A stretch of 52,974 bases of DNA. It comes from a virus. Its lineage: Duplodnaviria; Heunggongvirae; Uroviricota; Caudoviricetes. This document shows, piece by piece, positions 9,001 to 12,000 of the stretch; within the stretch, counting starts at the first letter, position 1, and every line of letters starts with the position of its first letter. The position numbers were made by a program. The stretch spans positions 1 to 52,974 of the IMG/VR virus record IMGVR_UViG_2802429234_000005, one strand, 5' to 3'.

Positions 9001-12000
9001 TTTTAAACGTTTTGCTTTTGGTATACATCATAGCGGTGAACGTGCCGTCATGGTTTGGGAACACGCCACATACCAGAGATTCGTTGTTGCCGAGGTCGAT
9101 TTTTTGCATTTTGCTGACCTTACATCTTGTTGCTGCGTATAGCGGCTTCTGCCTGACAGAGATCCCAGTCATTCCTGCGTAGAGCCTGTACATAGTTGCT
9201 CCGTAACGTGGAGCCTACGACCTGCTTTTAACCACATCAGGTGAGGTGATATCCTTACAAATGGTCATTTACTGTAAGGATATTAATTAAGAAGGTTTTT
9301 TCTATGCTCGAAAATCAAACCATGAAGGTTGCCTGCCCTGATTGCGGTAGCGAGATGTTCAAGCGGCCCGATGATTTTGACTTTGACACTAATTTCGTTG
9401 GCGTTAGTTGCGCCGAATGTGGTCGAGAAATCACCAGGGACGATGTTATTAAGCAAGGAAAAAATGTTGTTCATGAACAGGTCAATGACATGCTCAGGAA
9501 CGCCCTCAAAGGCAGCAGGTGGAAGTTTTAATAACTTCAGAATCGCACTAAGCTGATCCTCCGCTTCCGTAGCGTCTATAGAAAGTTCGATAGGCGCTAT
9601 TTTCATTTCTGCCATACATCACCTCACTCATTTCCCCTTAACGCCGGGTGGCGGAACTGTTTGCTGAGAACACCGTGCGGTGTCTTGATGTAAACAAGAT
9701 TAGTCATGGCTAACAATTAGGTCAAGTGTTTTTGTTTGCCATGACTAACATTTATGGCAACAAAAAAGATAACACATTGATTGTGTTATCTTTTGTTTGT
9801 TCGTTGACGGGCTTTTAATAATTCTTCAAAGAGTTTGTTGAAATTTTTTACTCGGGCGCGCATCTCGGTGAGCTGAGCATCCTGTTCTGATTCAGGCAAT
9901 GCATTAAAAAGCTCAAGGAGCTCGTGTTCTTTGGGGGATAAAGCAACTGGCTCCTCAATAGGTGGTGATGGCTGCTTGTCTTCATCGCCAAATAGAATCC
10001 ATGTTGGCGAGCACTGCAGTACATTGCTGAGGGCAAAAAGATTCTTCCCTGTAGGTTCGCTATCATCCCGTTCCCATTGTGAAACCGATACATGAGAAAT
10101 TTTCAGGGCTTTAGCAAGAGACCTTTGGGTGTATTTGAGGTTTTTTCGGCGATACCTAATGCGTTCGCCAATGGTTAAATTTTTTGTATCCATAGTTAGC
10201 TAATGCTAAATCTTATTGACTATGTTTTTGTTAACATCTATTTTGTTAGTCATGACTAACAAGCGGGTGCTTTAAATGCTTAAAACTGACGCACTTTTGT
10301 ATTTCGGTTCAAAAACAAAACTTGCACAAGCTGCTGGTATTCGTTTGGCTTCGCTTTATAGCTGGAAAGGGGAGCTAGTACCTGAAGGTCGCGCGATGCG
10401 CCTGCAAGAGGCATCTGGCGGGGAGCTTCAGTACGACCCCAAAGTTTATGACGAATATCGTAAGGCAAAACGACCTGGGAAGGTGATTCATGAAAATCAG
10501 GCATGAGCACATCGAATCAGTGCTGTTAGCCCTGGCAGCCGAAAAAGGGCAGGCGTGGGTCGCTAACGCAATTACTGAAGAATATCTGCGGCAGGGGGGC
10601 GGCGAATTGCCCCTGGTACCAGGCAAGGACTGGAATAATCAGCAGAACATCTATCACCGCTGGTTGAAAGGCGAAACAAAAGCGCAAAGGGAAAAAATTC
10701 AGAAGCTGATCCCAGCAATTCTGGCAATTCTTCCGCGCGAGCTGCGTCACCGACTCTGCATCTTCGATACCCTGGAACGCCGAGCATTACTGGCGGCGCA
10801 GGAAGCGTTGAGTACGGCAATTGATGCGCATGATGATGCAGTCCAGGCCGTTTACCGTAAGGCGCATTTTAGCGGCGGTGGGTCTTCCGACGATTCTGTC
10901 ATTGTTCATTAAGCAAAAGTTTCCATGCTGGTTGTGCTTATTCTAAGCCACCGGGCAGCATCATACGGGGCAATTATGGCCGCATTACCATACATGCAAC
11001 TGTACATAGCTGATTACCTGGCTGACACCATGCATTTGTCAGCAGAGGAACACGGTGCGTATTTGTTGCTGATGTTCAATTACTGGCAAACAGGAAAGCC
11101 AATACCCAAAAACAGGCTGGCAAAAATTGCCCGTCTGACTAACGAGCGATGGGCTGATGTTGAACCATCCTTGCGGGAGTTTTTTTGCGATAACGGCGAC
11201 GAATGGGTGCATCTTCGGATTGAGGAAGATCTGGCATCAGTCAGGGAAAAGTTAACCAAAAAATCAGCCGCAGGAAAAGCATCTGTTCAGGCCAGAAGAA
11301 GCAGAAAGGAAGCAGATGTTCAAACAAAACAAGAGAGAAATTTAACAGGTGTTCAAACATATGTTGGAGTGGTGTTTGAACATGATGCCAACACAAAAGC
11401 AACTAATAAAGATACAGATCTAAAAGAATTAAACCCCACACATAACGCGCGCGTACGCGAGAGTACTCCGACAAGTGAATCGAACGGTACGCCATCGCAG
11501 ACAACGGAACCCGAATATCTTGACGGCCTGATTGAACCCATCGGGAAATTTCCGATGACCGATGGCTGGCATCCGTCGCTGGATTTTCGACGACGGGCTG
11601 CACTGTGGGGCGTTGCCCTGCCAGAGCCGGAATTTACACATGCCGAACTTGCTGCCTTCCGGGACTACTGGACGGCGGAGGGGAAAGTTTTCACGCAGGT
11701 TCAGTGGGAGCAGAAATTCGCCCGTCACGTAAATCACGTCAGGGCGCAGGTTAAACCAGTCAGCAAGGGGGTGAGCCATGCAGCAGCACCAGGTGGCACC
11801 GCATCACGGGCAGTTCGGGAAATTCGGGCAGCACGTGAACAGTGGGAACGTGAAAACGGATTTATCAGCGACGGAAACGGCGTGGAAGCTGTGGGAACTC
11901 ATGGGGGAGGTTTATTCGAACCGCTGGACTCAGAAGAACGGGGCCGCACCTTCGAAGCTCTGGATTGCACAGATTGGCGCGATGACTGAGCAGCAAATCC

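Follow-up and report, generated by a model that had tools for sequence, protein, structure and literature searches.

Antisense overlapping genes have been reported in Escherichia coli O157:H7 and in Pseudomonas aeruginosa (PMC9927249; PMC8850804; review PMC7457138), and such overlaps are little studied even in viruses (PMC7457138). Protein coding on both strands of the same DNA is contested in bacteria and phages, most proposed cases being young, taxonomically restricted open reading frames (ORFs) that lie inside a long, conserved 'mother' gene and rest mainly on ribosome profiling (Ribo-seq). Here we describe a fully overlapping antisense ORF pair in a Rac-like lambdoid prophage, the IMG/VR virus record IMGVR_UViG_2802429234_000005 (Caudoviricetes), of which positions 1 to 52,974, i.e. 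a stretch of 52,974 nucleotides, are referred to as the window. The gene order is that of the Rac prophage of E. coli K-12 (racR - ydaG - ydaF - sieB - kilR), with homologs of ydaF, sieB, kilR and recE, but the pair stands where K-12 Rac has ydaG (44 aa). The comparative evidence favors, with a probability that we put at about 0.68, a genuine antisense overlapping gene pair, in which both ORFs are real and move as one module.

The two ORFs, their Shine-Dalgarno (SD) sequences and the part of the longer ORF that lies outside the shorter are as follows, coordinates being those of the window.

9304..9531, plus strand: plus ORF of 75 aa with an ATG start (stop codon included), encoding C11-P-D-C14, C36-A-E-C39 and a predicted C-terminal helix (ORF listing)
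9283..9615, minus strand: minus ORF of 110 aa with an ATG start, encoding an acidic protein and containing the whole plus gene (ORF listing)
9289..9295, plus strand: AAGAAGG, SD of the plus ORF (read from the sequence)
9619..9625, minus strand: GAGGTGA, SD of the minus ORF (read from the sequence)
9532..9612, minus strand: minus codons 2-28, outside the plus gene, with an I-D-A-T-E motif of which Asp14 is invariant (codon statistics)

A preliminary description of the window had reported a 110-aa minus-strand ORF and a 75-aa plus-strand ORF inside it, a ribosome-binding site for each and two CxxC pairs in the plus product; all of these are present, the CxxC pairs being CPDC and CAEC. A 3-nt spacer separates GAGGTGA from the minus ATG (9615-9613), which lies ~6 nt from the GAGG core, and AAGAAGG lies 8 nt from the plus ATG (9304). 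The frames are in exact antisense register, such that each plus codon pairs as reverse complement with one minus codon, plus residue i facing minus residue 105-i; in this register only plus TTA, CTA or TCA codons close the minus frame. The plus protein has just three Leu and three Ser residues, and the chance of an open antisense frame in the window sequence alone is consequently P ~0.3 over the overlap, or ~0.1 including the 28 extra codons. The overlap in this single sequence is thus not beyond chance, and its significance comes from comparative data only.

For the comparison, ~170 loci were collected with the plus protein as query, a choice that carries no ascertainment bias towards an open minus frame, and grouping at roughly <=80% identity of the plus protein gave 14 lineages, in all of which (14/14) the plus ORF is open. 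This ORF matches the NCBIfam model NF047912 (ECs_2282 family putative zinc-binding protein) with 81.7 bits (cutoff 37; E=2.5e-23), plus residues 7-66 aligning with model positions 1-60 of 60. Across the overlap, the diversity of nine clade representatives follows the classic order of plus codon positions, third above first above second (0.165/0.103/0.412 for positions 1/2/3), with a ratio of nonsynonymous to synonymous diversity (pN/pS) of 0.21 (interval 0.15-0.27); the ratio of nonsynonymous to synonymous substitution rates (dN/dS) conditioned on the other frame, calculated in an OLGenie-like manner, is 0.16-0.20. Residues C11, C14, C36 and C39 are invariant or nearly so in aligned family members, and CPxCG and CxxCGRxIxKDD are invariant in plus relatives down to 32-48% identity. 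An AAGGA-type SD is kept in most lineages, with none in the Klebsiella clade of locus L002. Opposite the four Cys, members of the minus family have no residues other than Ala and Thr, GCA/ACA being the reverse complement of TGC/TGT. The gene also occurs alone, with an SD, in a non-prophage setting in Leclercia adecarboxylata (LR590464.1; locus L005, 3001-3231), between an arsB/arsC pair and an AraC-family gene; in this copy CPYC replaces CPDC and the antisense frame is closed. By these comparative measures the plus ORF is a real gene under strong purifying selection. In one member of a Klebsiella clade (IMGVR_UViG_2808606822_000005; L053) plus Cys39 is replaced by Ser, with the minus ORF intact.

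The Lar family restriction alleviation model TIGR03655 scores 17.3 bits against the plus ORF, below its cutoff of 39.6, and the Lar-like phrog_6422 reaches only E=0.0055. Similarity to the PADLOC candidate defence gene PDC-M14A is weak and partial (E=1.8e-6, 26.4 bits; profile positions 18-86 of 152). The AlphaFold2 model of the plus protein is poor, with a mean predicted local distance difference test (pLDDT) score of 58. A scan of GTDB species representatives yielded three loci only, one of them spurious (a longer, unrelated protein from Bacteroidales), and literature searches on ECs2282, and on HK639 together with putL, found nothing.

In 10 of 11 clusters and in three further lineages, i.e. 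in 13/14 lineages overall, the minus frame has no stop over the full length of the plus gene or over at least 25 codons past the plus stop. Given each plus protein and the codon usage of the window, the chance of an open minus frame is 0.11-0.46 per lineage; the joint chance, taken as a conservative product over 10 groups, is 10^-6.2, and simulations along the tree in which only the plus frame is coding give a probability of 0-0.025 that no stop arises in nine leaves. In every lineage with an open minus ORF, its ATG is preceded at 5-10 nt by a GAGG/GGAG-type SD. The minus ORF is co-directional with its neighbors in all three operon contexts seen, these being the PL operon (Rac-like phages, HK639 and Edno5), a KilA/Rha operon (KP12) and a tail operon (Klebsiella phage 2b LV-2017). 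Among diverged relatives, the plus gene and the minus ORF both remain intact more often than chance predicts. In Klebsiella phage 2b LV-2017 (locus L089, 2501-2980) the module lies directly after the tape-measure gene, and the minus ORF is N-terminally extended to ~155 aa.

A coding signature is also apparent in the part of the minus ORF that is free of the plus gene. Over minus codons 2-28, pN/pS is 0.58 (0.44-0.72), the best of the six frames, and diversity at minus positions 1/2/3 outside the overlap is 0.38/0.28/0.54, a periodicity that is absent ahead of the ATG; summed over three separate clades, the changes seen inside each clade in the same codons number 12/12/27 at minus positions 1/2/3. 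An origin of this signal in the mirror plus frame (pN/pS 0.64) was ruled out by stop codons in that frame in the window. Searching with a profile of the minus family gave 34 cluster representatives (50% level). In 27 representatives with <=50% identity Asp14 never varies; it belongs to a hydrophobic-D-[AT]-[ST]-E motif in the part of the ORF that is free of the plus gene. Identity of the minus protein outside the overlap is ~43% among clade representatives, and constraint on it is weak. Two family representatives, P0028 and P0032, switch frame after ~84 residues and are frameshifted copies. From the comparisons of frame, start and codons 2-28, the minus ORF is probably real, its frame being kept open, together with its initiation signals, under what we estimate to be weak-to-moderate purifying selection.

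As to what the minus ORF encodes, it matches phrog_29546 (E=3.1e-6, 28.5 bits; residues 9-97 with profile positions 3-85 of 95), a family without known function. Pfam searches with 27 minus-family members gave no domain, profile searches of PDB sequences gave nothing significant, and Pfam and NCBIfam gave no antiterminator match for either the plus or the minus ORF. The minus N terminus, MAEMKIAPIELSIDATEAED, is acidic and has no arginine-rich motif, the whole protein being at about -5 net charge by residue count. The PL leader RNA folds no better than shuffled sequence (z = -0.44); no search for a boxA/boxB pattern was made. By sequence, neither ORF is lambda N-like. The preliminary description had tied to the overlap the question of which protein occupies the N-gene position beside the left operator: the minus ORF is indeed the first downstream of the left operator and the predicted PL, but neither product resembles N.

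A hint as to the expression of the plus gene comes from a conserved 5' element, consisting of a hairpin (CACCACCTCCGGGCTTCGGTGG), two CCCC[AT]ACAG boxes and an SD, which precedes sieB both in the window (~8375-8470, plus strand) and in K-12. A homologous element immediately precedes the zinc-ribbon ATG in E. coli R1 (locus L003, 2400-2513), in HK639 and in several viral contigs; in locus L001 the element is at ~2380-2460. The box sequence co-varies between clades, being TTCCACAGNCA twice in L066 and L004, and the element has no Rfam match. sieB is expressed in lysogens. Since an element of the sieB type precedes the plus ATG in these other clades, it suggests, by analogy, sieB-like expression of the plus gene in the prophage state.

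In the window allele, the interval between the minus stop and the plus SD is instead occupied by an inverted repeat.

9249..9283: inverted repeat, arms of 11 bp (ATATCCTTACA / TGTAAGGATAT) around a 13-nt loop (repeat search)

The repeat is perfect and was found only in the window allele, other clades having the sieB-type 5' element at this position. In sequence, one of its arms is close to the second CCC[TA]ACAG box (8442-8452) of the sieB-type element, and the repeat looks like a local inverted duplication.

In the genuine-pair reading, the plus strand encodes a conventional small zinc-ribbon protein under strong purifying selection, probably with its own expression signals and probably made in the lysogen while the surrounding operon is repressed. 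The minus strand would encode a 110-aa acidic protein, the first to be translated from the leftward early PL transcript, selection acting on its frame, start and ribosome-binding site and constraining its amino acids weakly. The two mRNAs would be perfectly complementary and convergent, from which mutually exclusive expression would be expected, of the plus gene in the lysogen and of the minus ORF after induction. On induction, PL transcription would cross the plus gene, such that the minus protein is made and the plus gene is shut off by convergent transcription and RNA pairing. Translation itself may be part of what is selected in the minus ORF, with ribosomes shielding the operon transcript from Rho-dependent polarity over a gene inserted in antisense; the loss of the minus ORF in the non-operon Leclercia copy fits this view.

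Several observations weigh against a genuine pair. No other relative frame gives rise to long shadow ORFs as readily as the exact antisense register, and with so few Leu and Ser residues in the plus protein each single lineage is unremarkable. Within the overlap, naive minus pN/pS is 1.12; as minus synonymous sites are plus first positions, the naive minus dN/dS there was set aside as uninformative. An OLGenie-style dNN/dNS of 0.68 was likewise discarded, because plus-only simulations alone give 0.52-0.80. Other signals inside the overlap do favor selection on the minus frame but are only suggestive: dSN/dSS is 0.57, compared with a plus-only null of ~1.0-1.16 (tail <=0.005), on ~2 sites synonymous in both frames (SS) per pair, and, with respect to simple null models, minus replacements at plus-synonymous codons have a mean BLOSUM62 score of 0.55 versus 0.07-0.29 (tail <=0.018) and plus Leu is encoded by CTC (minus Glu GAG) in 27/47 cases versus 9.7% of Leu codons window-wide. 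The simulated nulls use site-allowed amino-acid sets, a neighbor-joining tree and a fixed kappa, and a codon-usage-aware version overshoots divergence. In a scan for the sigma-70 consensus, neither the window nor E. coli R1 showed a promoter ahead of the plus ORF. The minus ORF has been lost in one lineage, that of Leclercia, and the minus C terminus differs in length and sequence between clades. The AlphaFold2 model of the minus protein is moderate (pLDDT 70; predicted template modeling score 0.38), its N-terminal half being predicted as helical with pLDDT 76-84, and a Foldseek search of the PDB gave no match with E<1, i.e. no structural neighbors.

Three other explanations were considered for the overlap. 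If only the plus ORF were real, the minus ORF would be a shadow, open since TTA, CTA and TCA codons are rare in a Leu/Ser-poor gene and annotated because gene callers prefer the longer, co-directional ORF. Such a shadow would fit with the dominance of constraint in the plus frame and the naive minus ratio above 1, with the individual per-lineage probabilities of openness, with the Leclercia homolog that has no minus ORF, with the PGAP calls of the plus strand alone and with the finding that CPDCGS and CGREI, read in mirror image, give the minus 'motifs' AIRAG and DFSTT. We regard it as unlikely, given that joint openness over ~10 independent groups has a probability of ~10^-6 (0-0.025 in the nine-leaf simulations) and that a shadow leaves unexplained the at least 25 open codons past the plus stop, the conserved minus SD-ATG, the coding periodicity and pN/pS of 0.58 outside the overlap, the invariant Asp14 and the bias to CTC at plus Leu. 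The opposite proposal, that only the minus ORF is real and the zinc-ribbon ORF its shadow, agrees with GenBank phage annotations, which call the minus strand alone, and with the fit of the minus ORF to the PL operon and its stronger SD. It is scarcely credible: minus position 1 is 2.5 times more variable than position 3 in the overlap, a pattern that no frame coding alone could show and that excludes the proposal, and the plus pN/pS, the conservation of four Cys in two CxxC knuckles down to 32-48% identity and the solitary plus gene of Leclercia all contradict it. Moreover, with at least 12 Leu in the minus protein the plus frame would be closed by chance in most lineages, yet it is open in every lineage examined.

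The third explanation has the minus ORF translated, but with translation alone mattering, in that it would avert Rho polarity on ydaF, kilR and recE across a moron inserted in antisense, the peptide having little or no function. We consider this possible but doubtful, if better placed than a minus shadow. The contrast between strong conservation of frame, ATG and SD and weak amino-acid constraint (~43% identity and pN/pS 0.58 outside the overlap) is what it predicts, as are the constant co-direction of the minus ORF with its host operon in three unrelated contexts, its loss where the zinc-ribbon gene lies outside any operon, the variation of its C-terminal ends between clades and the failure to detect an N-like antiterminator at its position. 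A peptide without function is, however, harder to reconcile with conservation of Asp14 and of the hydrophobic-D-[AT]-[ST]-E motif at <=50% identity, with replacements more conservative than in the plus-only null, with the N-terminal half that is predicted as helical, or with HK639, which keeps the ORF despite a putL-like antiterminator RNA just upstream. The preliminary description had left the choice between one translated ORF and a true antisense overlap; the second is favored, since the minus frame is open in 13/14 lineages with a conserved SD-ATG, an N-terminal coding signature and conservative replacements. The comparison of the two frames in relatives, which that description had envisaged as one way to choose, picks out no single frame, the plus frame being dominant inside the overlap and the minus frame also being maintained.

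A bolder extension of the genuine-pair reading, to which we give little credence at present, is that the module is a mobile antisense moron with a built-in pass-through ORF bearing its own SD-ATG, and is thereby able to insert backwards into any phage operon without polarity, the complementary mRNAs serving as a lysogeny/lysis toggle that would confine the plus protein to the prophage state and the minus protein to the time after induction. The zinc-ribbon protein would then possibly be a lysogen-expressed exclusion or defence factor, as the sieB-type 5' element and the weak similarity to PDC-M14A might suggest. If true, the proposal would supply a design principle for the entry of morons into operons and a clean, genetically tractable case of selection for dual-strand coding.

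The immunity region and the other features around the pair are listed below.

4043..7186, minus strand: recE-like gene (ORF listing and family matches)
9633..9654, minus strand: PL-leader block CCGCCACCCGGCGTTAAGGGGA, mosaic junction on the right-hand side of the module (aligned locally with K-12 Rac and E. coli R1)
9697..9725, minus strand: predicted PL, with TTGACC (9725-9720), a 17-nt spacer and TAATCT (9702-9697) (read from the sequence)
9700-9716 and 9735-9751: left operators, two copies of TTAGTCATGRCTAAC (repeat search)
9786..10193, minus strand: helix-turn-helix (HTH) repressor gene, flanked by the operators
10246-10262: right operator OR, a third copy of TTAGTCATGRCTAAC (repeat search)
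10276..10506, plus strand: P22-Cro-like gene, adjoined by the operator

The three copies of TTAGTCATGRCTAAC flank the repressor and Cro-like genes, in agreement with the operator context given by the preliminary description. The predicted PL is overlapped by operator OL1; a stringent consensus promoter scan of the window did not report the promoter at 9725..9697. For E. coli R1 the consensus scan places a leftward promoter, TTGACA-17-TATAGT, ahead of the homologous minus ORF, R1 having RacR-type immunity, unlike that of the window. The repressor, of 135 aa, has an HTH_3 / CI-type N-terminal domain and no S24 peptidase domain, and induction by RecA-stimulated self-cleavage is therefore unlikely. 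A palindrome with a 13-bp stem, flanked by an A-run and a T-run in the manner of a bidirectional terminator (9764-9794), overlaps the repressor stop codon (9786-9788) just rightward of OL2.

Leftward from the pair lie a DUF1391/ydaF ORF (minus strand), a sieB-like ORF (plus strand), racC/ydaE/kilR-like ORFs and the recE-like gene. The PL leader CCGCCACCCGGCGTTAAGGGGA is common to K-12 Rac right up to the first ribosome-binding site, after which ydaG follows in K-12 and the minus ORF in the window, a junction that also speaks for maintenance of the minus ORF; K-12 Rac has no homolog of either the plus or the minus ORF. The stretch 9110-9192 matches the 3' end of K-12 ydaG in alignment, from which it seems that the 5' part of that gene gave way to the overlapping module. 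A 79-aa ORF at 8954-9193 (minus strand) is an apparent fusion artefact, the K-12 ydaF protein (51 aa, DUF1391) corresponding to 8954..9109. Rfam gave no match within 9200-9700. Two sub-threshold Rfam matches, DicF (8209-8263; 42.8 bits, gathering score 48) and STnc100 (8021-8207; 32.2 bits, gathering score 47), together span 8021-8263 on the minus strand. They lie between the kilR-like ORF and sieB, i.e. at the position of the kilS small RNA in K-12 Rac, and the same pair is present in E. coli R1 (L003, 2062-2308).

Public annotation of the pair is systematically in conflict, in that GenBank phage records call the minus strand and RefSeq/PGAP and NCBIfam the plus strand. Where a homolog occurs in complete E. 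coli genomes (33 of them), PGAP calls the plus strand, and the minus ORF appears in GenBank phage records as HK639_45, QBP28601.1, KP12_367, Edno5_0050 and ARB15630.1; PHROGs holds the two ORFs as separate families, and no record that we examined annotates both. In E. coli NZ_OZ121084.1 (L171, 1165-1719), PGAP gives a 184-aa plus-strand 'hypothetical protein' ending at the zinc-ribbon stop, which is probably a call with an over-extended start, reading through the non-coding sieB-type 5' element.

With respect to known systems, the pair shares with published antisense overlaps a coding ORF that lies fully antisense to a coding gene, and the case for it is argued in the same terms, i.e. from ORF maintenance, purifying selection in overlapping genes and translation signals. 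It differs in that a short, strongly conserved gene sits inside a longer, weakly constrained one, in being known from sequence comparison, and in forming a mobile module that is present in 13/14 diverged lineages, drawn from records of phages, prophages and viral contigs of Escherichia, Klebsiella, Enterobacter and Edwardsiella. NF047912 is matched over its full length by the plus ORF, which has both CxxC pairs; the family is named but uncharacterised, and its description is silent on an opposite-strand gene. K-12 Rac shares the PL-leader block with the window, which retains a 3' remnant of ydaG (9110-9192) and has a different type of repressor and operator. The minus ORF resembles lambda N and P22 gp24 in being the first from PL, next to OL, and differs from them in its acidity, in having no arginine-rich motif and in showing no sequence similarity. 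The occupant of the first PL-operon position in this immunity type is, on the present analysis, the minus ORF with its antisense zinc-ribbon gene.

Short non-coding antisense RNAs opposite phage early genes are exemplified by lambda oop, which opposes cII, and P22 sar, which opposes ant. As with oop and sar, convergent transcription beside the immunity region could give mutually exclusive expression; unlike them, the antisense transcript here would be the mRNA of a conserved protein. The overall results point to the pair as a new, well-supported case among the contested prokaryotic antisense overlapping genes, unusual for the strength of the comparative evidence across several genera and three operon contexts. 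Its exact register lets a stop in either frame be silent in the other, and, with tractable lambdoid and Rac-like phages such as HK639 at hand, dual-strand coding of a kind proposed elsewhere mainly for young ORFs should be directly testable.

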